Made by a program: the position numbers and the translations under genes | Notes under the pieces: generated by a model | Told to the model about the DNA's origin: nothing | Seen by the model: only the letters and a program-made list of their open reading frames with translations | The model's database searches: none | Virus record (IMG/VR): IMGVR_UViG_3300028184_000121 | Span: 1 to 64,000 of that record | Strand: one strand, 5' to 3' | Length of the DNA stretch: 64,000 nt | From: an uncultured virus (IMG/VR IMGVR_UViG_3300028184_000121) | Lineage: Duplodnaviria > Heunggongvirae > Uroviricota > Caudoviricetes | Shown: positions 21 to 63,265 of the stretch, piece by piece | How the letters are laid out: each line of letters opens with the position of its first letter | Numbering within the stretch: position 1 is the first letter of the stretch

Positions 21-470
21 ATGATTGATTTAACTCAAATTACTTCTATCTTAAATGAAAGTGGTATTGAGGGTCTTACTGCTCAGTTAACTGAAGCAGA
101 CCCAGAAAACGATGTATTAATCTCAGAAGCTATTTTACAAGATGAGCTTACTGAAGAAGAATTATCAGAGTTCTTACAAAGCCCTGAGTATGATGAAGCA
201 GTAGCTTTAGGTATGCTTAGTGAGAAAACAATTGTACGTTTCGATAAAACTGCAAAATTATCTCGTGCTGAATCTCAAGCAATTCTTGCAATTGCTCGTG
301 AGAAAGGTGACCGCGACTTCAAGAAACTTATTACAATCTGGAAAGTGCGTAAACACCTTCTTGACAAATTAACGAAGAAGTATCGTGGACAAGCAGCTTC
401 TCGTGTTCGTCAAAACAAACAACGTATCTTAAATGGACCTAAAAAGGTTGCTAAGAAAGTTAAGAAATAA
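21..470 (+). CDS. Hypothetical protein, probable proteolytically processed virion head protein
   Basis: SD AGGAGG upstream; acidic N-half with several L/I-x-E motifs (LNE, ISE, LTE, LSE), basic C-half; followed by terminator. Confidence 0.5.
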   Translation: MIDLTQITSILNESGIEGLTAQLTEADPENDVLISEAILQDELTEEELSEFLQSPEYDEAVALGMLSEKTIVRFDKTAKLSRAESQAILAIAREKGDRDFKKLITIWKVRKHLLDKLTKKYRGQAASRVRQNKQRILNGPKKVAKKVKK

Positions 471-472
471 TT

Positions 473-506
473 AGATGGTAGAGCTTAGGCTCTACCGTCT
501 TTTTTG
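473..506 (+). terminator. Intrinsic terminator
   Basis: AGATGGTAGAGC-TTAG-GCTCTACCGTCT followed by T-run. Confidence 0.85.
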
Positions 507-543
507 CCGGATCATAGAAAAACGGAATAGACTCTTTTCCAAA

Positions 544-560
544 TATACATTATACTAGTG
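544..560 (+). promoter_or_regulatory. Putative early-type phage promoter TATACATTATActaGTG
   Basis: Motif recurs about 12 times, always upstream of genes. Confidence 0.65.
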
Positions 561-574
561 TAGCACAGCATAAC

Positions 575-640
575 AAGGTTTGCATGTTGTCCGAAACAAT
601 ATGCTATGACGTCCTAAAAGAGGTGTCATATATAAAGGAG
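575..640 (+). promoter_or_regulatory. Structured 5' leader, copy 1
   Basis: AAGGTTT + GCATGTTGT-CCGAA-ACAATATGC stem-loop + second hairpin + SD; homologous to 1216-1279 and 61426-61486. Confidence 0.7.
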
Positions 641-647
641 TAGAGAA

Positions 648-1109
648 ATGGAAAAGCATTTACTAGTTAACCGAGAAGAAGTTACACGTGCAAGAGGAAT
701 TCATCAAAGAGCGTTATTAGATACGCTATTGAATGAGAACTTGCTCACAAAACAGGAGTGGGAGAAATTAATCGAAATCAACCACACAACTGAACTTAGT
801 GTGTATTATGGAAAAGAGTTCTTGGAGCCATTCAAGTACAATGAGATTACCATAATAGACACGGCTATCCAAGTGGATGACACCATGATTATTACTACTA
901 GAGATATTATACCATTATTTGGGGAGTTTGAATTTGGCACCCTTGTCCATAAAGTGGGCATGGAAACACAAAAGAAAGTACCTGAGATGGATGATGTTTT
1001 CGCCGTTATGCTGGTGACTACAAATGCAGCGGAAAGTAGAGAGAATACTATTAAGCCATCCGCATTCTCATCGAGAATGTCAATCTACATTCCTTCCTAT
1101 AGATTATAG
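648..1109 (+). CDS. Hypothetical protein, 'hYIP' paralog family
   Basis: SD AAGGAG; internal LFGEFEFG; C-terminal SIYIP. Confidence 0.75.
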   Translation: MEKHLLVNREEVTRARGIHQRALLDTLLNENLLTKQEWEKLIEINHTTELSVYYGKEFLEPFKYNEITIIDTAIQVDDTMIITTRDIIPLFGEFEFGTLVHKVGMETQKKVPEMDDVFAVMLVTTNAAESRENTIKPSAFSSRMSIYIPSYRL

Positions 1110-1117
1110 GAGAAACA

Positions 1118-1147
1118 ATAAGAGAACTTCGGTTCTCTTATTTTTTT
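1118..1147 (+). terminator. Intrinsic terminator
   Basis: ATAAGAGAAC-TTCG-GTTCTCTTAT + T-run. Confidence 0.9.
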
Positions 1148-1185
1148 AGGAACATAGATAAAATCGTAATTAACATATATTAAGA

Positions 1186-1202
1186 TATATATTATAATAG
1201 TG
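1186..1202 (+). promoter_or_regulatory. Putative early-type promoter TATATATTATAataGTG
   Basis: Recurrent motif. Confidence 0.65.
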
Positions 1203-1215
1203 AGGTAGACAAATA

Positions 1216-1279
1216 AAGGTTTGAATGTTGTCCATAACAATATTCACTATACATGAAAAACATGTATAGATTAAAGGAG
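1216..1279 (+). promoter_or_regulatory. Structured 5' leader, copy 2
   Basis: AAGGTTT + GAATGTTGT-CCATA-ACAATATTC + CTATACATG-AAAAA-CATGTATAG + SD. Confidence 0.7.
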
Positions 1280-1287
1280 ATATTATC

Positions 1288-1779
1288 ATGACGAACTTAT
1301 TAGCATTATTCGGAAATACTAGTATTTATAAAACAGGTACTGAAAAGATGAAAGAGATTGTATCCCACGGGTTATTAAATCAAGATGAAGCTGATTTCCT
1401 TGAACGTATGATTGATGATAATACAAGTATTCACATTCATGTAGGAAAGCAAGGTAGAACTAATTTTAAAAATCGTGCATTACGTAATGTGATGACTTAT
1501 GAAAAACGTGATACTGGTTCTACTATAACGGTTCGCTCAGTAACACCATTCCATGGAGATTATGTTGTAGGTAATTATCGTACAGAGAATGGTAAGATTA
1601 TAACTAGAGAGAATGCATCTATGAAAGATGTATTTACTACAACAAAAGTTAATATTAAACGTAAAGATTATTCACCACATTGGGAAGGTGCAAAGATTAC
1701 AGAATCAAATACAGTATACGTTTATATTCCAACTGATCGTATTAACGAAGATTACACAAATGCTCGTAGTAAATATTAA
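1288..1779 (+). CDS. Hypothetical protein, 'hYIP' paralog family
   Basis: SD AAGGAG; FHGDYVVG; C-terminal VYVYIP. Confidence 0.75.
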   Translation: MTNLLALFGNTSIYKTGTEKMKEIVSHGLLNQDEADFLERMIDDNTSIHIHVGKQGRTNFKNRALRNVMTYEKRDTGSTITVRSVTPFHGDYVVGNYRTENGKIITRENASMKDVFTTTKVNIKRKDYSPHWEGAKITESNTVYVYIPTDRINEDYTNARSKY

Positions 1780-1785
1780 GATTAA

Positions 1786-1812
1786 AGGGAACTTCGGTTC
1801 CCTTATTTTTTT
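1786..1812 (+). terminator. Intrinsic terminator
   Basis: AGGGAAC-TTCG-GTTCCCT + T-run. Confidence 0.85.
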
Positions 1813-1849
1813 GGGTTCATAGTAAAAAATCGCCATCTAATATAGGAGT

Positions 1850-1861
1850 AACATGTTAATA
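1850..1861 (+). promoter_or_regulatory. Putative nvRNAP (AR9 late-type) promoter AACA-TGTTAA-TA
   Basis: Exact AACA-N6-TA upstream of the beta' gene. Confidence 0.5.
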
Positions 1862-1933
1862 TTTAATGTAGATTATAAGTAAACATTATCTACGTGAGAT
1901 ATAGAAATTAAATATTTGGAGGGAGTTAATAAC

Positions 1934-3919
1934 ATGTCAGTTGTTATTATTAAAGAAGTCTTATCAGGTAAAAAAGCGTGGAGAGCAGAATTCGATAAAC
2001 GCTACGATTACATGAAACGTAATATCGGGAAGAAGCATTGCTTCGAAAAACAAATTAGATTTAAGTTTAACAAAGCCGACGATAACGTCTTTGTACTCCA
2101 TATCACTGATTTCATTACAAATATGATCATGTGGAGACCCTTTGTTAAATACAAAGTAGAACTAGGACCAGACCTAATTATGGACTGTTCTAACATTACC
2201 CAACGAGTGATTAAAGGGTATATTGATGACAAAATTATTGAACCATTGAAACGTAAGGTTGCAGTAGAAGACCTAAGCATGGAATGTGCGAAAATCATTG
2301 AGGGTCTTGCAAAGATTGATGAAGACTTCGGTCTTATCATGGCAATGGGTATGAATCTATATGATACAATCCAATTATCAAAAATAAGCCCACGGTACAA
2401 AGAGTTAATCAATACAGTTGTACCTCATGGATTACAACCAAGTGAGATTGAGAACTATATCCGTAGTCGTGGTGCTGAGATGGTAGACATCTTAAAAGTA
2501 ATTCCGAATAACTTGAAACCATTCTTGAACTCAGGTCAGGGTGTTAAGGTTGACCAATTGAATGAGTTCCAACTATCGGGTGGTATGAAATCAGACTTAG
2601 AAGGTAATACATATCCAATGCCAATTAATACAAACTTATTAACGCGTGGATTCGATAAACCTTCTTATTATACATTAGATGCATTCGGCGGTCGTAAAGC
2701 CCTAATCATGAACAAAGAGTTCACTGGTAAATCAGGTTACTTTGCACGCCGTCTAGACTTACTATGTATGGATATTAAATTACATGATGACCCACGATAT
2801 GTATGTAACACAAAACACTTTGTGGAGTTCACGGTATTAACACCAACACACTTAGAAAAGATTGAAGGTCGTAAATATAAGAAGAGTCCGAAAGCAAAAG
2901 TATCTCGTACAGTATTTGCTGAAGATACTCATTTAATCGGTCAGACAATCTATTTACGTAGTCCGTCTACTTGTGCAAGCAAGAAAGGAATCTGTTATGC
3001 ATGTTATGGCGACTTAGCTTATGTGAATAACAATGGATTCCATATTGGACTATTTGCCGTTAAGGATGTATCGGCGAAACTAACACAGAACATTCTGTCA
3101 GCAAAACATTTACTGAAGACGAAATCTAAGCAAATTAAAATGACAGAAGGATTTGATAGCTACTTCACAATCGATGGCGGTGATATCGTATTACAACCAG
3201 ATGCAGATGTGAAGGGATTAGAAATGGTAATTGATGCGAAAGATGTACAGACAGAATCTGAGTTCGATGAAGTAATGGAATTCAATAAGAAGATTTCATA
3301 CTTCCGTATTCGTGTAAAGAAAACAAAGAAACCTATCTGTACGATTCGAGAGATTGGGGAATCCGAACCAACGTTATTCATTTCAGAGTATCTGGATGAC
3401 TTAATGGATAAGCATTACGATCCAGTTGATAACCAGTTCGTGATTCCGATGAATAAGATTAAAGATGATGAAGAAGGGCGTTCACTATTTGCAATCACAA
3501 TCATCAATAATGAGCTTACAAAACCATTAAAAGATATCATGGCACTTGTAGATAACAAAGCTCACTTAGGTTGTGAAACAGTTTCTGAAATGGTTCAGAA
3601 ATTCTGTGAACTACTTGTAAGCACAGGGATTAGCACAATGCTAGTTCATGCTGAACTCATCCTGCGTAATATTATGCGTGATGAGAATAATAAGTTACAC
3701 CTACCAGATTATACGAAAGATGAGATTGAATATGAAATGATGTCTGTTAAGAAAGCATTGAAGTTCCATCCATCTGCACTGGTATCGTTATCATTCGAAC
3801 GTATTGAAGAACAACTTCGTCGTCCGATGACATATAAGAAAACAGCACCGTCGATGTTTGACCCGCTGTTTATGCAAGACTATAACCAAGTACTTGACGT
3901 ATATGGAGATGATAGATAA
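1934..3919 (+). CDS. rpoC: Phage multisubunit RNA polymerase beta' subunit, C-terminal half (probably non-virion RNAP)
   Basis: Bridge-helix-like KSGYFARRL, Zn site RSPSTC...ICYACYG, trigger-loop-like IGLFAVKDVSAKLTQNILSAKH; no DFDGD (N-half lies elsewhere); ATG 1934 follows an SD. Confidence 0.9.
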   Translation: MSVVIIKEVLSGKKAWRAEFDKRYDYMKRNIGKKHCFEKQIRFKFNKADDNVFVLHITDFITNMIMWRPFVKYKVELGPDLIMDCSNITQRVIKGYIDDKIIEPLKRKVAVEDLSMECAKIIEGLAKIDEDFGLIMAMGMNLYDTIQLSKISPRYKELINTVVPHGLQPSEIENYIRSRGAEMVDILKVIPNNLKPFLNSGQGVKVDQLNEFQLSGGMKSDLEGNTYPMPINTNLLTRGFDKPSYYTLDAFGGRKALIMNKEFTGKSGYFARRLDLLCMDIKLHDDPRYVCNTKHFVEFTVLTPTHLEKIEGRKYKKSPKAKVSRTVFAEDTHLIGQTIYLRSPSTCASKKGICYACYGDLAYVNNNGFHIGLFAVKDVSAKLTQNILSAKHLLKTKSKQIKMTEGFDSYFTIDGGDIVLQPDADVKGLEMVIDAKDVQTESEFDEVMEFNKKISYFRIRVKKTKKPICTIREIGESEPTLFISEYLDDLMDKHYDPVDNQFVIPMNKIKDDEEGRSLFAITIINNELTKPLKDIMALVDNKAHLGCETVSEMVQKFCELLVSTGISTMLVHAELILRNIMRDENNKLHLPDYTKDEIEYEMMSVKKALKFHPSALVSLSFERIEEQLRRPMTYKKTAPSMFDPLFMQDYNQVLDVYGDDR

Positions 3920-7616: not shown

Positions 7617-8249
7617 TTATTCAACCCCTCTCATAGTTAATATTTTAAAATCTCCTATTTTACTAGCAGCTGTCATGATTGTAGGTGTAATAGCTTTTAC
7701 TTCGAATCCATGTGTTTGAAATGCATTTACAGATTCATCGAAGTCATTGATTGTAACTAACTCAGTACCTTGTATTTTATAATACTGATTGTTAATTTTT
7801 AAAACAGAAGCCTCCATAAGAGGTTCGTATAACTGAATAGACGTAATCTGAACATCATTTCTAGTTGTCGTAAAACTAAAATCAAATGTATCGGCAACTA
7901 ATGTTCTAGGTAATTCTATTGTAGTAATATCTTGCCCGACAGGTAGATTATACGTGTACACCACATTTGTAGTTGAACCATCGGTACGGTGACGAATGGT
8001 TAAACGTAACACATCATTCATTTCTGAAAACCGTCTTGTGATAATTATAGTACGAACGTTATACCATCCTGTATTAAAATAAACTTTTAAAGTCGGAGCT
8101 TTGGATGGATATGAATCCCAGTATTCAGTTGCAACTTGATCTCCGACATGCCACGGGTATCTAGAATTGTATATCGAATCGGCAGTAATCCTACAGACAC
8201 CTGTAGTTTCTGCTGTCATCTTTGGTATTAGAGGTTTCCCTAAAGCCAT
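7617..8249 (-). CDS. Discoidin/F5-8C-like carbohydrate-binding-fold protein, paralog 1
   Basis: PLIPKMT start, YPW..GD, IQLY, LKINNQYY, FKILT end. Confidence 0.6.
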   Translation of the reverse strand: MALGKPLIPKMTAETTGVCRITADSIYNSRYPWHVGDQVATEYWDSYPSKAPTLKVYFNTGWYNVRTIIITRRFSEMNDVLRLTIRHRTDGSTTNVVYTYNLPVGQDITTIELPRTLVADTFDFSFTTTRNDVQITSIQLYEPLMEASVLKINNQYYKIQGTELVTINDFDESVNAFQTHGFEVKAITPTIMTAASKIGDFKILTMRGVE

Positions 8250-8261
8250 AATCTAACCTCC

Positions 8262-8879
8262 TTAATTAGACATCGTTAGAATCGAATACTTTCCACCAAT
8301 GTCTTTAATTTGTTTTTCCATGTCAGGTGTCATATCTTTGATATTAAACCCATCATTTAAGAAATGTGAAGGTAAAATACTTTCTGCCGATGAAGTTACT
8401 AATTTCATCTTACCACTATCATCAAATGAATAAATACTATCATTGATTCTAACAACGGCTAATGTATCAACTAGTTTAAATAGTTTAAATTCAGCAACGT
8501 TTATAAAACCAGTTGGGTTAATCTCTAATTTTATTTGTGTTACAAGTTTAGGTGCAAATGACATATTGTCTTTTCCATTGTTTCCAATAGTTCGAGAATA
8601 TGCTTGGACACCGTCAAAATAAACCTTGTAACCGTTACCGTAATATTGACCCATAAGTATATCAAACCCAATTAGATAAGCAGGCTTAGGGCATGTTATA
8701 GTAATACTATGGGTGCCGGACGAATTACAATACCAAGTGGTACCAGTATTACCGTCAAATGCAAACCCTACTCCTCTATCGGAACTGTATGCTGTACATA
8801 TAACTTGCACACCGTTATCTGTAAAATTATTAGTAGGGTAAGACCCATTGAATTTTGGAAATGCTACACTTCTTGCCAT
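8262..8879 (-). CDS. Discoidin-like protein, paralog 2
   Basis: AFDGNTGTTW, VAEFKLF, VRINDSIY, YSILT. Confidence 0.65.
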   Translation of the reverse strand: MARSVAFPKFNGSYPTNNFTDNGVQVICTAYSSDRGVGFAFDGNTGTTWYCNSSGTHSITITCPKPAYLIGFDILMGQYYGNGYKVYFDGVQAYSRTIGNNGKDNMSFAPKLVTQIKLEINPTGFINVAEFKLFKLVDTLAVVRINDSIYSFDDSGKMKLVTSSAESILPSHFLNDGFNIKDMTPDMEKQIKDIGGKYSILTMSN

Positions 8880-10901: not shown

Positions 10902-11534
10902 ATGGCAAAATTATCAAATCCACTAATACCTATAATGAAATCTTCAAACCAGGATGGTATTTCAATTAAAGGTTTCATACCTGAGGCATTTGATGGGAAT
11001 TGGGATGTTTCTGTTCGAACCAATATTTCATATCCTACTTTTACTATAACATTCCCGGTAGCTAAGAAGATTACCGCTATGAAATATAAGGGTGCTAGTA
11101 TGGGATTCTCTAGTATAAAAGGTGGGATGACGGCTAGTAATTTAGTTACTCTCGCATACACTACAGAATCTGCTGGTGACGTGAATACGTACTATATAAC
11201 CAATGAACCCATGTGTCAAGTTGTAGAAATCGCACTTAGCTCGATTGGAGGATCATCAGGTAATTGGTATGGATACATTAATGAAGTACAATTATATGGA
11301 CCACAGAATTCAGCATTTATTGAAATAAATAATACGTTATATACTGTAAAAAATAAGGTCCTAGCACCTATCGGCGATGTATCGTCTATCACCATTGAGC
11401 AGTATAAAGATAAGGATTTAACAGTGAATACTTTAGTTAGCACTATGATTTCATATAACGGGAAAGACGTCCCATTATTAGATTATTTACAGACTAATTA
11501 TGGTAAATTTAAATTACACACGTTACAGCAATAG
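10902..11534 (+). CDS. Discoidin-like protein, paralog 3
   Basis: PLIPIM, EAFDGN, INEVQLYG, IEINNTLY, KFKLH. Confidence 0.65.
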   Translation: MAKLSNPLIPIMKSSNQDGISIKGFIPEAFDGNWDVSVRTNISYPTFTITFPVAKKITAMKYKGASMGFSSIKGGMTASNLVTLAYTTESAGDVNTYYITNEPMCQVVEIALSSIGGSSGNWYGYINEVQLYGPQNSAFIEINNTLYTVKNKVLAPIGDVSSITIEQYKDKDLTVNTLVSTMISYNGKDVPLLDYLQTNYGKFKLHTLQQ

Positions 11535-11545
11535 GAGGTTTTAAT

Positions 11546-12211
11546 ATGACTGAAGCTTTAGTTCCTAAAATGACAGGGCAAACTACTAGTAATATTAGTA
11601 TCACTCAAAGTGATTTTACATCTAACGGTCCTGCATGGATGTCATTTGATAAAAAAACTGATGATTTTGGTTGGTATTGGAATAATAGTGCGGTAGTACC
11701 ACATCATTTAATAATTTATTTTCCTTATGTTGTTAGTGTAGCATATCTAGAGTTCTACAGAGCTGTAGGTAACACTAAAGGGGCAGGTACAATACAGACT
11801 GTTGAAATGTATGCTGGTAATACTGATCAAAGTCTAATTTTAAAAGATAGTAAACCTGTAGGCTTTACTATAAATGATACACTTAAACGTGTCAACTTCA
11901 CATCACCTATTATGGGTAAGTGTATTAAAATGAGATTTACCGCAGATTCTACCTATACAATAATACCTGAAATGCAGATATTTGGTACAAAGGTACCACA
12001 AGTGTATCTTCTAGCGATGAAAGGTAAATTGTATACTATACAAAATAAAGCTTTAAAACTTGTAAGTAACTTAAATGAACCTGATATCGCTTCATTTACT
12101 GAAGGGTTTGCATTATCAGTATTATATGAACCCGTTACGGTGGACGGTAATCAAATACCGTTTATCAATACATTAGAAGATTTTAAGCTGTATGGAAAAT
12201 TAGGAGGTTAA
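11546..12211 (+). CDS. Discoidin-like protein, paralog 4
   Basis: LVPKMT, AWMSFD, IPEMQIFG, FKLY. Confidence 0.65.
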   Translation: MTEALVPKMTGQTTSNISITQSDFTSNGPAWMSFDKKTDDFGWYWNNSAVVPHHLIIYFPYVVSVAYLEFYRAVGNTKGAGTIQTVEMYAGNTDQSLILKDSKPVGFTINDTLKRVNFTSPIMGKCIKMRFTADSTYTIIPEMQIFGTKVPQVYLLAMKGKLYTIQNKALKLVSNLNEPDIASFTEGFALSVLYEPVTVDGNQIPFINTLEDFKLYGKLGG

Positions 12212-12214
12212 GTT

Positions 12215-12862
12215 ATGGCAAATATACCATTAATACCTAAGATGACCGTTAGTCCAACTAACGGTGTATCTGTGGTAGAAACAAATAGAAATACTTTCTA
12301 TCCCCAAATGGTGGATAGAAATTCTGCTACATCAGTACGTATTCAAGCATCATATCCGGCTGTAAGTGTTAAATTTAATAAACCTGTCAAAGTTACATCG
12401 GTAATGTTTGACCTATATAACTACGGAAGTGTGACAATACAGGGTAAAAAGCCAGGTGGTCCATTGGCTAATATCACATCGTACACGTCAGGTAATATAC
12501 GAAATGTTACAATTAATATTACAGCGGCGGTATACGAAGAAATTGTGTTTTATATAGATGCCCGAGGAAAAGATTCAGCTAATGCTTGGATTGCAGATAT
12601 CTATGACGTACAAGTATATACGGATAGCCCTCCTGTATTTTTAGAAATTGATGGGAAAGTATGTACTATCGTTAATAAAGCGATAAATGTGATAGGGAAT
12701 GCTACGGATATGACAAAGGAGTTATATCTATCAGCCCCATCATTATTTATAAAAGAACTTCATAACGAGAAGATACTATTTAATGGAAAAGAAATTCCAC
12801 TATTACAGTATCTGCAAGAGAATTATCCGAAGTATAAACTACATTATGTAGAAACGTTATAA
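12215..12862 (+). CDS. Discoidin-like protein, paralog 5
   Basis: PLIPKMT, IYDVQVY, LEIDGKV, KYKLH. Confidence 0.6.
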   Translation: MANIPLIPKMTVSPTNGVSVVETNRNTFYPQMVDRNSATSVRIQASYPAVSVKFNKPVKVTSVMFDLYNYGSVTIQGKKPGGPLANITSYTSGNIRNVTINITAAVYEEIVFYIDARGKDSANAWIADIYDVQVYTDSPPVFLEIDGKVCTIVNKAINVIGNATDMTKELYLSAPSLFIKELHNEKILFNGKEIPLLQYLQENYPKYKLHYVETL

Positions 12863-12875
12863 GGAGGTATTACTA

Positions 12876-13496
12876 ATGGCAACTTTAGAAAGTTTAGTTC
12901 CTAAGTTAACAAGTGCACAAGGACCAGGTATAAAGATAACATCTGGTGGTGAAACTGCATGGAAAGCTTTTGATGGACGAACTGAGATTAATGGAGAGCA
13001 GTATGCATGGTCCTTAGCCGGGACTGGTTGGCGCACTATTACGATAGAGTTTGATAGTCCCATTATAATCACGCAATTTGATGTAAAAACAAGTTATACA
13101 GGTCTTACTAGTATTACAAAAGAATCTATCATAGTGGATGGAGGTCAAGATGAATCATTTTCAGTTAAAATAGTTTATGAAAATAGGCTTGTGACCAATG
13201 AATTTAAATTAGCACAACCAAAAACAGGGAAGACAGTTGCACTACAATTTTATGTAGGTAATTCTAGTTCATTCATACAAGAGATAGTTCTATGGGGATA
13301 TAAAATGAAGTCTCTTGTAGAAATAGATGGAAAGTTATTTTCATTTATAGGTGACAAGCTAACGCTTGTATCTGAAACTCATGATTTTACATTAGACCTT
13401 GTAGATCAAAGTACTTCTTTATCAGATATTACTAAAGGTATGGATAGTATAAAGATCATGTCTGATAAATTTAAAATACAAACGGTAATTACATAA
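12876..13496 (+). CDS. Discoidin-like protein, paralog 6
   Basis: LVPKLT, AWKAFDG, IQEIVLWG, LVEIDGKL, DKFKI. Confidence 0.65.
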   Translation: MATLESLVPKLTSAQGPGIKITSGGETAWKAFDGRTEINGEQYAWSLAGTGWRTITIEFDSPIIITQFDVKTSYTGLTSITKESIIVDGGQDESFSVKIVYENRLVTNEFKLAQPKTGKTVALQFYVGNSSSFIQEIVLWGYKMKSLVEIDGKLFSFIGDKLTLVSETHDFTLDLVDQSTSLSDITKGMDSIKIMSDKFKIQTVIT

Positions 13497-13510
13497 TAGG
13501 AGGTGATAAT

Positions 13511-14155
13511 ATGGCAACTTTAGAAAGTTTAGTACCGACATTGACTGGATATACAGGACCAGGAGTAACGATATCGGCATCGAGTGAACGTGATTCTCAA
13601 TACCCTGCATGGAAAGCGTTTGATTCAAGCATCCAATCAGCAGAGACTTGGGGTTGGGGTGCAAATTTAACATCAGCATCGATTAGTGTAGCCTTTGATG
13701 TACCTGTGACACTACATGCAATAAGACTTAAAACCAATGGTAATGGATTTACTGATATTAAATCCATATCAGTGTATACTGATGATGCACTTATTACTAC
13801 TTTTGCATCCAAATTAGCTTGGTGGACAAATAATGGTGGGATTATGGATGAAGAACACACGCTCTCATTGCCACCGACAGGAAAAACTATTAAATTAGGA
13901 TTTATGGCAAATAGAGATGGTAACTATATTGCTGAAATCCAATTACTAGGAATTAAAAAAGATGAAAAATCATTATTGGAAATCGGTAACCGAATGTATA
14001 CTATCTCTAATGGTAATATGCTACGAGTAAATGATTCGATTGATTATACTACAGAGGTATTCGACAAGTACAGTTTGCCAATAGCTATGATTCCTAATCA
14101 TATGGAAGCTATTAAAAATACAGGTGAGTCATTTAAGATTCATACAATTAAATAA
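13511..14155 (+). CDS. Discoidin-like protein, paralog 7
   Basis: ASSE...YPAWKAFD, IAEIQLLG, LLEIGNRMY, FKIH. Confidence 0.7.
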   Translation: MATLESLVPTLTGYTGPGVTISASSERDSQYPAWKAFDSSIQSAETWGWGANLTSASISVAFDVPVTLHAIRLKTNGNGFTDIKSISVYTDDALITTFASKLAWWTNNGGIMDEEHTLSLPPTGKTIKLGFMANRDGNYIAEIQLLGIKKDEKSLLEIGNRMYTISNGNMLRVNDSIDYTTEVFDKYSLPIAMIPNHMEAIKNTGESFKIHTIK

Positions 14156-20144: not shown

Positions 20145-20822
20145 ATGTCATTTAAAGAAAAGTATAACGGTCTGTATCCTATTGTACCAAAATTTACAAG
20201 CATGGAGAATAAATTTGGTAAACTTTATTTTGAAGGTAAATTTTTAGAAAAGTTTGATCCTTGGAAAATATTCGATGACGAATCACCAGACTATGATTCC
20301 CGTTTCTTCGAAACTACTGAAAGTAGTACAGGGTATGGTGCATATTTTCATGTAATGTTAAACTACCCTATTAGAGATATCAGTCTTATTCGAGTGAAAC
20401 ATGGTTCAAATACTTCATATCTAACTAAAGGTGTCGAAATATTTGCATTATTGGATGATGGTACCATGCAACGATTGGGTGCATGGTTGATACCAGGAAC
20501 TAAAGAATATCAACTGGTTGATGTATCGACAAAAACCCCGGCATTCATAACCAAACATTTAGTATTTAGATTTACTACAGGGTATCATATTTTAAATGAA
20601 ATACAGTTTTATAGTAAGTATCCTGTAGGGGTTAATTCGGTATTATTAGAAATAAATTCAGCTATGTATAGTACTGCAAAATCTAGTGTAGAACTAGTTG
20701 AATCTGGAAATAATCCTAGCAAACAGTCTTTCGATAAAGGTAGTGATATATCGGAAGTTATAGGTCAGATGGATTTAATAAAAGCTATATCTGATAAATT
20801 TAAAGTTCATATACTAGACTAA
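20145..20822 (+). CDS. Discoidin-like protein, paralog 8
   Basis: PIVPKFT, PWKIFD, LNEIQFY, LLEINSAMY, SDKFKVH. Confidence 0.6.
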   Translation: MSFKEKYNGLYPIVPKFTSMENKFGKLYFEGKFLEKFDPWKIFDDESPDYDSRFFETTESSTGYGAYFHVMLNYPIRDISLIRVKHGSNTSYLTKGVEIFALLDDGTMQRLGAWLIPGTKEYQLVDVSTKTPAFITKHLVFRFTTGYHILNEIQFYSKYPVGVNSVLLEINSAMYSTAKSSVELVESGNNPSKQSFDKGSDISEVIGQMDLIKAISDKFKVHILD

Positions 20823-40677: not shown

Positions 40678-41187
40678 TTACATTAAGTCCATTCTGGGAA
40701 CATAGATATTTAGGATAAAATAATGTGAGTCAAATTCAGGAATTCCAGAACCAGACAAGTTATTCCATACATGTCGATGGATTGTAACGACATTCACTTT
40801 TGTTTCATCAAACTCAGGCTTAACGAAATCAAACGTTGTTTTACTTGGAATAAACATTCCGTGATGTTCTGTACTCTTACGAGTTCCAAATACTAATTCA
40901 TTACCGATTACGCATTGTCCAAACTCTTCAGTTCCTTCAGAACCTGATACTGAATTTGAACGATTATAGTTACGCAATGTCAGTGTGTTTTCAAATTCCT
41001 TTGGGTCACGAGTTACGTGTACCATGTAACCTAAACTTACATCGACAGTATCAATGATTTTCTTTAGGTATGTAGTAGAGATATCCCCTTCAGCTTTCTG
41101 AACGATTAACTCTAAAAGATTAATCTTCTGATTCTCTAACGCGATGTCCTTCATCATTTCTGGTCTAGCTACTGTTGTGATTGTCAT
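40678..41187 (-). CDS. Hypothetical protein, 'hYIP' paralog family
   Basis: VIGNELVFG; C-terminal LNIYVP; long structured leader. Confidence 0.75.
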   Translation of the reverse strand: MTITTVARPEMMKDIALENQKINLLELIVQKAEGDISTTYLKKIIDTVDVSLGYMVHVTRDPKEFENTLTLRNYNRSNSVSGSEGTEEFGQCVIGNELVFGTRKSTEHHGMFIPSKTTFDFVKPEFDETKVNVVTIHRHVWNNLSGSGIPEFDSHYFILNIYVPRMDLM

Positions 41188-58708: not shown

Positions 58709-59215
58709 TTAAACGATGTCAAATAACTTCGTAATGATTTCTATCTCTTTATCCATTTTATATGGTTGACCCTCTGGTAAGTAGATTGCAACTTCTTTAT
58801 GCATCTTATCAAAGTTAGGGTCTTTACTTGTAATCTCAATTACTGCTACTTCATCAACTGAGAAGTTTGGTAATTGTAATTTACTTTCAGCTTGACTATA
58901 GAAAGTAGCTTCCTTCTCAATCTTCTTACCTACTTCTACATTACCTACGATTACACGGCAATATTGTTTTACGTAAGTTGGTACTGTGTTACCTGCTTTA
59001 GATTTAGTAATATCTTTATCAAAACATTTTTCAGCAAATTTCTTTGAAGTTTCATATACGTTAATTCTGTATTGTTCCATCACATCCATATTACTCACTA
59101 CAGCTTCAATCTGAGATTTAGTTAATGCACCTCGCGTACGCTTGATAATCGTTCCGATTAAAATCGCCTTTCGTTCCGCCATATTAAGTGTTTTATAATT
59201 TTTTAATTCCGACAT
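58709..59215 (-). CDS. Hypothetical protein, 'hYIP' family
   Basis: VIVGNVEVG; VAIYLP. Confidence 0.75.
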   Translation of the reverse strand: MSELKNYKTLNMAERKAILIGTIIKRTRGALTKSQIEAVVSNMDVMEQYRINVYETSKKFAEKCFDKDITKSKAGNTVPTYVKQYCRVIVGNVEVGKKIEKEATFYSQAESKLQLPNFSVDEVAVIEITSKDPNFDKMHKEVAIYLPEGQPYKMDKEIEIITKLFDIV

Positions 59216-59237
59216 TGTTAAAATTCCTCCTAATTAG

Positions 59238-59762
59238 TTATGTTAAACAAACGTGTAATTCATAATGTAAACTTATTGGTTGTTCTTCTCTCGTTACTTC
59301 CCTAACGATCATAGTTGCAAATAAGTTACGTGTACCAAAATCTTCTATGTTTCCAATTTCAAATGTTTTACCCTCGACGATATTTACACCTTCGATGATT
59401 TCTGTATCATAATTATAACCATATCCATATGCTTGGAATGATGCTTTTGCTTTTGCTTTTGTTATTTTAATATCTCCGATTATCACTACAGGCATAGCCA
59501 CATGACGGATTGTTACTTCTTTTCCATCCTCCATCATTGTATATGTGAAGTCTCTTCCTGTACATGCATTTGATAGGAACTTGCGATATGCAGGACCTCT
59601 TTCTGCGGCATCAGCATAAATGTGTACTGCATCAATATGATGTGTTGTGAAAACACCTATGAATGCTGATCTATCTCCGTCTCCTAATTCTAATCTACTA
59701 ATCCCAAAAGGTCTTGGTCCAAATATTGATAAGAATGCTTCTTCATGTTTTAATGTAGTCAT
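59238..59762 (-). CDS. Hypothetical protein, 'hYIP' family
   Basis: VHIY, IIGDIKI, ELHVCL. Confidence 0.72.
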   Translation of the reverse strand: MTTLKHEEAFLSIFGPRPFGISRLELGDGDRSAFIGVFTTHHIDAVHIYADAAERGPAYRKFLSNACTGRDFTYTMMEDGKEVTIRHVAMPVVIIGDIKITKAKAKASFQAYGYGYNYDTEIIEGVNIVEGKTFEIGNIEDFGTRNLFATMIVREVTREEQPISLHYELHVCLT

Positions 59763-59775
59763 TATTATTTCCCCC

Positions 59776-60330
59776 TTATTTTATCCCTCTGTAGTTGTAA
59801 CACAATTCCATAACGGTATCTGGTATATAGACATGTAACCTGGACTTAATATCCGAATCAGTTACTTCTTCATTTTCCAGAGTCTGATAGGAATGTGTGA
59901 CTCGAATGATTAAAATATTCTCATGGAGATTTTTAGGGTCATAGTCTTTTGACTCACCTCTGACATCGATATCAACATCCACACATCGACCACTATTGAA
60001 TGGATCGAATATAACCGCCGCATTTACATGTGTGTCTGGAATCTTGATGTCTTTTGGAATGAGTAACCATTCCGGTGTTACCTTTTGCTTTATTTCTAAT
60101 GTCCCACCATCAAGCTTGTATATGCCATCTCTTTTTGTGGTAGCGTGCATAGTGAATACAGGATACTCCTTGTATCCCATGTATACCGCTACATCATCTA
60201 TAATATTACTGAACTGCAATTGATGCCGTAGAACTGCAATTACATTCTCAGCTGGTTGAAATCCTCTAATTCCCAAAATCACATTACTGTCTAATGATTG
60301 TAAAGCCACCTCTTTAGTTAGAATAGTCAT
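59776..60330 (-). CDS. Hypothetical protein, 'hYIP' family
   Basis: VAVYMG; RLHVYIP. Confidence 0.75.
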   Translation of the reverse strand: MTILTKEVALQSLDSNVILGIRGFQPAENVIAVLRHQLQFSNIIDDVAVYMGYKEYPVFTMHATTKRDGIYKLDGGTLEIKQKVTPEWLLIPKDIKIPDTHVNAAVIFDPFNSGRCVDVDIDVRGESKDYDPKNLHENILIIRVTHSYQTLENEEVTDSDIKSRLHVYIPDTVMELCYNYRGIK

Positions 60331-60400
60331 TTTTAATAACCTCTTTCTATTATATTATCGGATGGAGTTTTATCTCCATCCGGTGTTACCATTGATAAAC

Positions 60401-60901
60401 CTATATACGATTATTAGGAATATAAATGTGTAATTCTTTGAGGTCATGTTCTTGCCCATCGTCATTCGTTCCATAACGATTTACCTGAACAATTTGTAAC
60501 TTGCTTTCATTTAAAGTTCCTTGTACATGAGGTCGTTCGACTTCTCCTATACGTGGATGCTCCATAAGACAATCATAGGCTACATCCGCAAACTCTAATG
60601 AACCGCATGTAGCTTCTCCGTATAATACATAATTTGCTGTAGCATACGTAATTTTAGTATCTGGTTCAGTCACTGATACATATTTTACTAACATACGAGT
60701 TAAAGCATTATCTATAAACTTTTGTGTTTTAGAATACGCTTCATTTCGATCCGAGTATATATGAACTAAGTCAAATTTTTCTTTGTGTAATGTTGCGAGT
60801 AGAACGTGTAATTCATTATGCATTAACATAAAGTCTTTTAAACCTAATACGTTCGGTGAGAATAGTGAGTGTAATGTTTCATCATGTGATAGTGTTTTCA
60901 T
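60401..60901 (-). CDS. Hypothetical protein, 'hYIP' family
   Basis: ATG 60901 after GAGGAG; VHIY, VLYGE, ELHIYIP. Confidence 0.75.
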   Translation of the reverse strand: MKTLSHDETLHSLFSPNVLGLKDFMLMHNELHVLLATLHKEKFDLVHIYSDRNEAYSKTQKFIDNALTRMLVKYVSVTEPDTKITYATANYVLYGEATCGSLEFADVAYDCLMEHPRIGEVERPHVQGTLNESKLQIVQVNRYGTNDDGQEHDLKELHIYIPNNRI

Positions 60902-60947
60902 TGTAATATCTCTCCTCAAATAAATTAGTAGGATAAAGCTTTTAGCT

Positions 60948-61418
60948 TTATCCCTGTTCTGCTTGCAGAATGCGATTCTCTGGAATGTGTATATACATAA
61001 TACTTCCATCGCCTCTATATTTCATTTTGTCAGCATGTATAACTCCAACTAAATCTTCTGCTAGGGTCATAGTAAACTGATTAGAATCAACGAAGCATTC
61101 GCTTCGTTTTTCACTATTGGGTTGATACTTTGGATAGACTGAGTCTTCCACTTTTCCTACTGACACGTTACCTGATAAGACTTTAATACGACGCATTTCC
61201 ATTCGGTCAGACGTTTGTTTAAAGTTACTGTCATAGCACGCTAGTTTCTTGAATGGCGATAACTCTCCATTCCCAAAGAAGAAGCGAACTCCTGTGATAT
61301 CATCATTCTTCTTTAAGTGTGAAACTAATACTTTCTTTTCTGAATCTTTCATTAATCCGCCATGCGGGATCATAGATTCATTGTACTTCATAAGTTCTTC
61401 TCTTACGTATAATTCCAT
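60948..61418 (-). CDS. Hypothetical protein, 'hYIP' family
   Basis: VLSGNVSVG; MYIHIP. Confidence 0.75.
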   Translation of the reverse strand: MELYVREELMKYNESMIPHGGLMKDSEKKVLVSHLKKNDDITGVRFFFGNGELSPFKKLACYDSNFKQTSDRMEMRRIKVLSGNVSVGKVEDSVYPKYQPNSEKRSECFVDSNQFTMTLAEDLVGVIHADKMKYRGDGSIMYIHIPENRILQAEQG

Positions 61419-61425
61419 TTCTTAG

Positions 61426-61486
61426 CTCCTTATCTCCATACCTTATAAGTATGGGGGAGGGTTGTTATGGACAACCCTAAAACCTT
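61426..61486 (-). promoter_or_regulatory. Structured 5' leader, copy 3
   Basis: AAGGTTT(T) + AGGGTTGT-CCATA-ACAACCCT + CCATAC/GTATGG hairpin + AAGGAG. Confidence 0.7.
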
Positions 61487-61499
61487 TATTAATGGCTTA

Positions 61500-61518
61500 C
61501 TCACTAATATAATGTATG
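61500..61518 (-). promoter_or_regulatory. Early-type promoter CATACATTATAttaGTGAG
   Basis: Recurrent motif. Confidence 0.65.
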
Positions 61519-61543
61519 ACTGAATACACATTTGTTACGTTTT

Positions 61544-62083
61544 TTATTCTACTGGAATTGTAGGGTTAATATTAGGCTGATATACATGTAGTTCATTATA
61601 CACTTCATCATGCTCTTTTCCTGTAGTTAACTCTTTTACGCAACGAGTAATTGTTCTAATAAAGATATGAGGCTTCTCAATATCAAAGTTCTCAAATTCT
61701 TTATCTGTATCAGCAATGAGAGTCTGACGTGTTTTACCAAAAATAGTCTCTACTGTCTGGCGAATATGCTTATCACCAAATTCAATATCACTATCAATAG
61801 CCTTTACAAAGATACTTGACATCTCCATACACTCATCATTTTTACCGTAATACTTTTCATTATATAATACGTCAGTGATAGACATTTCTTGAGAGTTAAT
61901 ATCATCTTTATGATGATATACAAAACGAAGAAACTTATCAGATGATAAGTTCTTCAGTAATGTAGCTGTAATATTTCTATCCATTTCCGATATGATATTA
62001 TTCTCTACCATGTGATCATATCGTGCTTGCATTGTTTTTATTAATTGACCAATATGTTCTAGTCCGTCTCCAAATATATGCAT
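61544..62083 (-). CDS. Hypothetical protein, 'hYIP' family
   Basis: ATG 62083 after GAGGAG; DIEFG; ELHVYQP. Confidence 0.75.
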   Translation of the reverse strand: MHIFGDGLEHIGQLIKTMQARYDHMVENNIISEMDRNITATLLKNLSSDKFLRFVYHHKDDINSQEMSITDVLYNEKYYGKNDECMEMSSIFVKAIDSDIEFGDKHIRQTVETIFGKTRQTLIADTDKEFENFDIEKPHIFIRTITRCVKELTTGKEHDEVYNELHVYQPNINPTIPVE

Positions 62084-62084
62084 A

Positions 62085-62690
62085 CTAGTTCTCCTCACTT
62101 TCTGTAAATTCTTCAAATAAGGTACCTGGCATTAGAATATGTAATGAGTATTCAGGTTTCGTACTTGTAGCAGAGCGTTCTGCAAATATACGATGAGATT
62201 CATAATCTTTTACTAGTGCAATAATAATCTCTTTTTTACCCGGGAACTTAGTAAGTTTTTCGGATGTAGTTGTCATGATTTCCAATTGTCCAGTATGTGT
62301 CATTTTCTGTGACGTATGGATACATTTATTACCTTTAAGAATAGCGTCAGCACCCTTAACGATATCCACTCGTCGAGTGGTAGTTTTATTACCAATAATT
62401 TCAGAGATATTTGGAACTTCTCCCACAGGGTATTGCATATTCGTAGGAACTGTTTCATCCATATCAATACACTTAAATGCGAAGTCTAAGAAGTCCTTCG
62501 AGAATAATGAGCAATCCCCACCATCGTATAAGTGTACTAATTTAAGTCCATATGTATCATCTTGTAGTAATGTTTTAATTGCATCTGTATGATCTTGTGA
62601 GAAGTGTAATGATGAATTCTTAGGAAGGAATTTATCCAGCCCGTCCTTCTCGATATGTTGTAATGTAAGTTCTTTTGATAGTGTAATCAT
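62085..62690 (-). CDS. Hypothetical protein, 'hYIP' family
   Basis: VHLYDG; SLHILMP. Confidence 0.72.
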   Translation of the reverse strand: MITLSKELTLQHIEKDGLDKFLPKNSSLHFSQDHTDAIKTLLQDDTYGLKLVHLYDGGDCSLFSKDFLDFAFKCIDMDETVPTNMQYPVGEVPNISEIIGNKTTTRRVDIVKGADAILKGNKCIHTSQKMTHTGQLEIMTTTSEKLTKFPGKKEIIIALVKDYESHRIFAERSATSTKPEYSLHILMPGTLFEEFTESEEN

Positions 62691-63265
62691 TATTTATTCT
62701 CTCCCTTTTCTGTAGTTGGTACATATACCATAATATGTCGGTAAACACCCATAACGTCAGCAGGTTTATACCATTGCATTTCATTATTTGGGCGTGTAGC
62801 TATTTCTACTTCTACTTCGCATATAATAACATTATTTATAAACATTGGAATTGCTACACCATCTTCATCACAAGCGGTACATGATTCCATAATTTCAGTT
62901 TGCATAACACCATTACGATTCATATATGCAAAGTTTTTAATTTTTCTTGTTTTAGGTTGATAAGTTCCAAATAATACTGTAACTTTATGAGTATCAAATG
63001 AATCGAATGGTTTTACACCAATTCGAGATATGTGCTTGTTTGTAGCCTCATCGATAAATGTAAACATATCATTCTGACCTTCGAAGATTGCAATACTATC
63101 GATAACCTTTTCACCTTGTGCGAGTCTATCTAAGATAATATCATGATGCTCATGTAGTAATGAGCCATCTCTACATAATTTTGTAATTTTATTAAGTCCT
63201 TTATCTATATTCTCTAAGCGAATATTTTCATATACTTTCTCAGCCTTATGTAAGTCTGTCGTCAT
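62690..63265 (-). CDS. Hypothetical protein, 'hYIP' family
   Basis: IAIFEG, VLFG, IMVYVP. Confidence 0.72.
   Translation of the reverse strand: MTTDLHKAEKVYENIRLENIDKGLNKITKLCRDGSLLHEHHDIILDRLAQGEKVIDSIAIFEGQNDMFTFIDEATNKHISRIGVKPFDSFDTHKVTVLFGTYQPKTRKIKNFAYMNRNGVMQTEIMESCTACDEDGVAIPMFINNVIICEVEVEIATRPNNEMQWYKPADVMGVYRHIMVYVPTTEKGENK

Follow-up and report, generated by a model that had tools for sequence, protein, structure and literature searches.

In phage lambda, the nut site consists of boxA located 5' of a boxB hairpin that carries a GNRNA pentaloop. The operator of T4 gene 43 is a hairpin located about 40 nt upstream of the start, the top of which is invariant between phages (PMC3014915). 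In T4-type phages, orphan genes have also been shown to be shuffled by PeSL units (PMC2839356), and the put element of phage HK022, which is about 70 nt long, forms two stem-loops 3' of early promoters (PMC9378689). Among jumbo phages, the early promoter consensus of Bacillus phage AR9 has been mapped as AAATATATATTAT-6N-G, and the 5' UTRs of AR9 early transcripts carry an unnamed predicted motif of which the function was left unexplained (PMC5312081); antitermination in another jumbo phage has only been suggested (PMC11512511).

Among these systems, the leader element described here would appear to work most like the T4 gene 43 operator, to which no sequence relation is apparent. As in the gene 43 operators of T4 and RB69, a hairpin is found some 40-50 nt before the start codon, near the ribosome-binding site of early transcripts, and its top and loop are invariant between phages while the lower stem is variable (PMC3014915). 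Unlike the gene 43 operator, which is one autogenous site recognized by its own product, the element is represented by six sites that precede divergent paralogues, and it includes a second hairpin and a 5' AAGGUU motif.

The window, i.e., the whole stretch of DNA that was analysed (64,000 nucleotides), corresponds to positions 1-64000 of a virus record (G000) that is 73,336 bases long. The genome-wide survey was performed with a 223-kb record (G003) that is about 90% complete and is identical to G000 over the compared stretches. On the basis of a beta subunit of RNA polymerase that shares about 40% identity with its counterparts in Bacillus phages AR9/PBS1 and Internexus, the source is classified by sequence as an uncultured AR9-related jumbo phage encoding its own polymerases, and strong Shine-Dalgarno (SD) sequences together with the kinship to Bacillus phages suggest a Bacillota host. 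This phage also encodes a second paralogous family (205-225 aa, start ..L(V/I)PK(M/L)T..; window 7617-8879, 10902-14155 and 20145-20822), which is probably structural.

Six copies of the element were found in G000, at 575-640 (+), 1216-1279 (+) and 61486-61426 (-) in the window and at 65562, 66165 and 67343 (-) beyond it. An earlier note on this DNA had reported three copies, at 575, 1216 and 61486 (minus strand), and all three were located there with the stems that it described. One further full copy, found in a related phage (L166), brought the alignment to seven sequences. The order of parts is a promoter TA(C/T)ATTAT-6N-G, a leader of 13-16 nt (14-16 nt in this phage and 13 in L166), AAGGUU, hairpin 1 (9 bp, loop CC(A/G)(A/U)(A/G)), 0-3 nt, hairpin 2 (about 9 bp, loop AAAAA, AAAAG, UAUAA, GAAAA or UAAAA), a few bases, the SD and ATG. 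The promoters match the AR9 virion-RNA polymerase early consensus; a clear promoter motif was found for 5 of the 7 copies, where the predicted start lies 13-16 nt 5' of the element.

Copy 1 (+) follows a virion-RNA polymerase type early promoter motif with predicted start G560 (541-560) that matches the AR9 consensus; it consists of the single-stranded AAGGUU motif (575-581), hairpin 1 (582-604; 9 bp, loop CCGAA) and hairpin 2 (605-630; bulged stem, A-rich loop), and is followed by the SD AAGGAG (635-640), a gene of the hYIP family (648-1109; 153 aa) and a predicted intrinsic terminator with a UUCG loop and U tract that ends unit 1 (1119-1147). Copy 2 (+; 1216-1269) is preceded by an early promoter motif with predicted start G1202 (1188-1202) and carries AAGGUU at 1216-1221, hairpin 1 at 1222-1246 (loop CCAUA) and hairpin 2 at 1247-1269 (loop AAAAA). 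Its SD, AAGGAG (1274-1279), serves an hYIP gene encoding 163 aa (1288-1779), unit 2 ends in another terminator with a UUCG loop and U tract (1785-1812), and the promoter motif of the next gene, encoding RNA polymerase beta-prime, is found at 1882 (+). Copy 3 (-; 61436-61486) has its promoter motif and predicted start G61502 at 61502-61516, AAGGUU at 61486-61481, hairpin 1 at 61478-61458 (loop CCAUA), hairpin 2 at 61454-61436 and the SD AAGGAG at 61426-61431; the hYIP gene that follows (60948-61418; 156 aa) opens a five-gene hYIP run with a terminator at 58698-58675. The statement of the earlier note that each copy is placed between a promoter and the SD of an hYIP gene holds for these three copies but does not extend to the intercistronic copy 66165, which has no promoter-like motif, or to copy 65562, of which the promoter is poor at best. 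A repeated DNA motif (CATAG, an A-run and CG) is located between terminator and early promoter at window 505-530, 1150-1170 and 1813-1833 and is kept in L166; a similar string precedes AR9 g263 (Table S2, PMC5312081).

Soil RNA libraries accounted for 17 of the 20 runs that hold window 300-2300, with long contigs and flat cover that includes intergenic parts; this cover may represent transcript, or phage DNA carried into the libraries. At the contig level, three of four RNA libraries have a contig that starts at 604-617 and one has a contig that reads through, and copy 2 is spanned from 5' of its predicted start. Therefore, since one contig runs through and copy 2 is spanned, the contig ends at 604-617 carry no information on transcript ends.

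The three window copies each fold as two abutting hairpins, with z scores of -2.5, -2.3 and -1.9. A 14-mer core with 2 mismatches allowed gave 4 matches vs 2.12 expected, which is not significant (17 of 100 shuffles reach 4), whereas the full pattern of AAGGTT, 9-bp stem and CC loop, itself derived from the copies, was found 5 times in the 73-kb contig and in none of 200 Markov controls. In the alignment of the six phage copies and L166, which represents about three lineages, 96.8% of hairpin 1 is paired and 4 of its 9 pairs differ on both sides. For both hairpins together, 91.9% of 124 cells are paired, as compared to 36-50% in slid-alignment controls, and 11 of 18 pairs are changed on both sides; none of 500 shuffles scored as high, although related sequences can beat shuffles and, with seven sequences from about three related groups, covariation counts overstate the number of independent events. 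Compensatory changes, noted earlier for the lower part of the first stem, are present in both stems, and the covariation represents good evidence for RNA structure, short of formal proof. Two details of the earlier description had to be revised: the GTTGT/ACAA top is not invariant, as copy 65562 has GCTGT/ACAGC, a compensatory change, and copy 67343 is degenerate there, and hairpin 2, described as of unrelated sequence, is a covarying stem of about 9 bp with an A-rich 5-nt loop. The unpaired AAGGUU and the loop CC are conserved and the outer stem pairs vary; because unpaired bases are conserved on a covarying stem, a ligand is pointed to. A closing helix or pseudoknot among AAGG, the CC loop and the SD was also considered and was rejected, as it would have just 2-3 bp and no covariation.

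The evidence for the RNA strand as such is modest. Hairpin 1 shows 4 G-U and no A-C combinations among the six intact copies, and hairpin 2 shows 2 G-U and 3 A-C (six copies, with 575 left out); the sense strand folds better in 5 of 7 copies and the antisense strand is equal or better in 2. A site that acts as DNA, either a palindromic operator (GTTGT-N5-ACAAC) recognized by a dimeric repressor or a late promoter that overlaps the element, could account for an inverted repeat directly 3' of the start and for the presence in 7/7 copies of AACA, the core of the AR9 late promoter. However, the outer arms vary yet pair, including G-T pairs, the spacer is asymmetric and conserved, only one copy of seven conforms to AACA-6N-T(A/G), and hairpin 2 would be left unexplained, which makes such a site highly improbable. 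The analyses confirm that the element is a real, structured, covarying and conserved cis-element of early leaders, and its function most probably resides in the RNA and involves a bound factor.

All copies precede genes of a single orphan early family, hYIP, with about 20 members (G000 64522-70953, 58709-63265 and 40678-41187; L033:18973-19500). The family profile identified 20 genes in the phage at E<0.001, and the full element was found before six of them. No Pfam or PHROG name was found for hYIP. The profile is matched by 41 cluster representatives, which include orthologues in other phages and multi-repeat proteins; P0024, P0031, P0040, P0041, P0045 and P0044, from other sources and 364-567 aa long, contain two or three tandem hYIP-like domains, and an HSWAG motif is common to several of the tandem-domain proteins and P0044, which is an orthologue of window gene 58709-59215. 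The AlphaFold model of gene 1288 (pLDDT 88) shows an alpha/beta protein with a long beta-hairpin; comparison with PDB and BFVD gave no clear structural match (best Z 4.4), which is not proof of a new fold, and the ESM Atlas gave no lead above 0.83. The family is absent from AR9 and five other relatives; the profile search gave one partial match (E 0.005), within a 2783-aa frame. Binding of the element by the downstream family, as proposed in the earlier note, is not supported, given that identity of the members to the first of 14 aligned is 11-22%, that they are mostly acidic (the element-bearing genes 1288 and 66814 encode basic members), that they show no known RNA-binding fold, and that element-bearing genes do not represent one clade. 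In a poorly resolved tree of 22 rows, from which three divergent rows were left out, these genes require 4 changes and formed a single group in none of 200 bootstrap trees.

Of the 18 family genes that have a clear SD, 7 are preceded by a hairpin of at least 7 bp that ends at most 8 nt from the SD, as compared to 4 of 166 other genes; hairpin 2 is therefore a family-wide module, to which AAGGUU and hairpin 1 are an add-on. Other hYIP leaders were also observed. The leader at window 41355-41187 (-) is about 170 nt long and has several A-loop hairpins without hairpin 1, the last of which resembles one before L035:16479. A second leader type has a single A-loop hairpin 12-15 nt 5' of the SD (window 60954-60930 (-) and 60382-60359 (-), G000 ~69880-69860 (-)), and those before genes 60901 and 69833 are alike in sequence.

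A metagenome scan found one relative, L166, of which 22 kb could be compared and of which beta-prime is 75% identical. In this single comparison, the element is found at the orthologous locus before a single hYIP gene (P0021, 39% identity to gene 648), as opposed to two genes in this phage. While the downstream proteins are about 30-40% identical between the two phages and 102 of 160 four-fold sites (64%) of the neighbouring beta-prime gene are identical, AAAGGUU and hairpin 1 of L166 are identical to copy 1216 at 31/31 nt; L166 hairpin 2 is altered in sequence with pairing retained. Terminators and promoter-upstream DNA at this locus are likewise well conserved, so that the leader resembles other selected regulatory DNA and conservation alone does not single out a translational operator. 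The difference in gene number, an L166 leader that corresponds to copy 575 upstream and to copy 1216 in the hairpins, and the dispersal of element-bearing genes over the family tree (4 changes) could also reflect a ligand-free cassette of promoter and leader, a generic unit for translation or stability copied with duplicated genes and homogenised by recombination or gene conversion. Like the PeSL cassettes of T4-type phages, which shuffle orphan genes, the element is part of a repeated set of promoter, stem-loop and SD before orphan early genes with gene number varying between relatives. By comparison, the PeSL stem-loop is located within a sigma-70 promoter or 5' of it and terminates transcription (PMC2839356), while here the promoter is of the virion-RNA polymerase type, the hairpins are 3' of the predicted start and transcribed without a U tract, and one copy has no promoter; no sigma-70 site was listed at the predicted starts of copy 3 or the outer copies. 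Gene conversion would, moreover, homogenise stems and not yield compensatory changes in both of them, and such a cassette is considered unlikely.

The covariance-model search proposed in the earlier note was run on G003 with a model (R1) of the six phage copies and the one from the relative. It recovered exactly the six known copies, at 62-86 bits by construction, and one weak, degenerate copy before gene 66687 (21 bits, E 0.08), with none in the remaining ~150 kb. A long RNase III-like stem, interrupted by an internal loop and lacking a U tract, was observed between genes 67278 and 66687 (G000 ~66810-66770 (-) and L012 2775-2737), followed by this degenerate copy. Searches with R1 of AR9, two uncultured jumbo phages, Internexus, LPJP1, phiR1-37, SA1 and PB50 gave nothing convincing (best E 0.35), and the best match in AR9 (E 0.75) is within apparent coding DNA. 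Because R1 finds nothing in AR9 and AR9 has no hYIP, the AR9 early-UTR motif, which resembles the element in being predicted for early leaders, those of the closest phage studied (PMC5312081), is probably different from the element. No new homologue was obtained by pattern scans of viral contigs, which gave chance matches and identical records of this phage, and protein-seeded scans of viral contigs gave identical records or nothing; a promoter-based pattern was set aside as too loose. The comparison with Rfam 15 that had also been proposed placed the element in no family, with no window match at gathering score and, at E<=5, three unrelated weak matches that do not fall on the element.

Look-alikes were found in Patescibacteria. 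One of 24 genome matches (L183, 1001-1030) has a perfect hairpin 1 with AAGGUU (45.5 bits), a second genome (L202, 1501-1540) has a weaker hairpin-1 look-alike (29 bits), and 30 Patescibacteria loci that were scored gave 1 further weak match. The two look-alikes show a 5' AAGG(G)UUU just past a stop codon and before a T-rich run, in differing contexts, and the core was not enriched in 401 Patescibacteria genomes (40 matches vs 44 in a reversed control, forward strand alone). Given this setting, the differing contexts and the lack of enrichment, they were treated as probable terminator-like chance matches. The element was observed in a narrow phage lineage, with two phages at the DNA level. Literature searches showed no description of the motif, and 6 of the supplement files of a viral structured-RNA catalogue (PMC10690425) held no match; within that scope, the element is apparently undescribed.

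The spacing from AAGG to the SD is 55-60 nt in all seven copies. One operon contains three copies, each before a different gene and with no terminator found between them. The constant distance to the SD, the promoterless copy 66165 and the presence of three copies within one operon point to an action on translation or mRNA fate. Units 575 and 1216, which each consist of a single gene that ends in a terminator and is followed by a new promoter motif, argue for the same and against antitermination. Modification of the phage's virion RNA polymerase (anti-pausing or antitermination) by an element of the put or nut type would be in keeping with two abutting hairpins of about 55 nt found 13-16 nt past the predicted start in 5/7 copies, and HK022 putL and putR likewise have two adjacent stem-loops of similar size soon after early promoters. 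The resemblance to put is in shape only: HK022 put acts, with no need of a protein factor, on the beta-prime zinc domain of the host RNA polymerase and suppresses pausing and distant terminators (PMC9378689), while here the units are short, have their own (predicted) terminators and are tied to the SD. The put effect persists over 10 kb, which would make repeats needless, the operon with three copies has no intervening terminator, only 4 of many early-type promoters bear the element, and it is the distance to the SD, not to the promoter, that is constant. As in lambda nut, a pentaloop hairpin follows a short unpaired motif, and a GAAAA loop is present in 2 of the 7 second hairpins. Unlike nut, the 5' motif is AAGGUU and not boxA and the hairpin 1 loop is CCR.. 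and not GNRNA, each in 7/7 copies, and this phage, unlike lambda, has its own RNA polymerases. Among 149 proteins there was no Pfam match to an N-like or NusG-like protein, although N proteins are poorly conserved and four ORFs have an Arg-rich window. The boxA/boxB-like antitermination site considered in the earlier note is not supported, given this consensus and loop, the promoterless copy, units that end in their own terminators and the lack of N/NusG-like Pfam matches among the 149 proteins, and modification of the virion polymerase is judged quite improbable.

The AAGG could alternatively serve as a weak SD for a leader peptide that is translated through the hairpins and unfolds them or couples to the main gene. 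All seven copies read X-Leu-Ser in one frame (with the synonymous codons TTG, CTG and TTA) with a stop before the main start, and 4/7 have an ATG start. Nevertheless, GGG replaces ATG in the other 3, pairing of AAGG with the anti-SD is about -4 kcal/mol vs -8.5 to -9.4 for the real SD, and the frames, of 9-19 codons, share no frame or stop position and start within a stem; such a peptide is very doubtful.

Less unlikely, but still improbable, is a processing or stabilising site, at which an endonuclease (of the host RNase Y type or of the phage) cuts AAGGUU and the 5' double hairpin shields the cistron from 5' exonuclease and sets its level. The copies precede individual genes within one operon, which also contains the long stem without a U tract, and B. 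subtilis RNase Y prefers A/U-rich single strands with G at -1 and a stabilising downstream hairpin (PMC11780869). However, the RNase Y consensus is only weak (PMC11780869), the B. subtilis enzyme may not be that of the host, stabilising hairpins require stem strength and not loop conservation, and a cut in the promoter-proximal copies would take off just 15-20 nt.

The preferred reading, to which we assign a probability of roughly 45%, is a protein-bound translational operator that coordinates a subset of early hYIP genes, probably by repression. Of the earlier proposal of a protein-binding cis-regulatory RNA, the structured and conserved cis-element, most likely RNA, is retained, antitermination and binding by hYIP proteins are not, and the translational operator is the reading adopted here. 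The leader RNA would act in cis and after transcription through two modules. Module 1 (AAGGUU and hairpin 1 with its CCR loop) would be a sequence-specific site for one trans-acting protein, most likely phage-encoded, and module 2 (the A-loop hairpin, stacked on hairpin 1) would serve as a rigid spacer, so that the ribosome-binding site stays unfolded and the protein on module 1 is positioned at the edge of the 30S footprint. Neither stem includes the SD, which is predicted to be unpaired in 5 of 7 copies (0.69-0.84) and mostly paired in two (unpaired 0.42 and 0.15); since it is outside the stems and predicted open in 5/7 copies, no intrinsic switch is evident. An unbound leader would allow good translation and would probably be stabilised; in a bound leader initiation would be blocked, so that synthesis of the subset of early hYIP proteins would be jointly dosed or shut off. 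A protein bound to hairpin 1 would be located 30 nt or more from the SD, and a steric block is assumed. Transcription starts, protein binding, the identity of the binder and repression are what we infer in this model. Comparison of 149 of the 175 phage proteins (up to 420 aa) with Pfam found no RNA-binding family and one 3'-5' exoribonuclease-like domain; at L036:14816-15439 and L036:10541-11656, the phage codes for a protein with an Rv2179c-like 3'-5' exoribonuclease domain and a tubulin/FtsZ-family protein.

The narrow distribution (two phages at the DNA level), the uncultured host and a function deduced from sequence limit the weight of these findings. Phages of the phiKZ/AR9 type transcribe independently of the host, and the element would bear on how their early genes are dosed or silenced post-transcriptionally. 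As a compact, covarying motif with seven copies, an alignment and a model, the element represents a direct bait for the regulator, and it also gives access to an orphan protein family whose confidently modelled fold has no clear match. A more far-reaching possibility, considered unlikely, is an undiscovered regulon in which a phage-encoded RNA-binding protein with a new fold, possibly one of the basic hYIP members, reads AAGGUU and the CCR loop and times or balances about 20 early proteins of new fold, or in which the RNA docks on the sigma-less virion RNA polymerase. If true, this regulon would represent an undescribed translation-level early switch in host-independent AR9-like jumbo phages.
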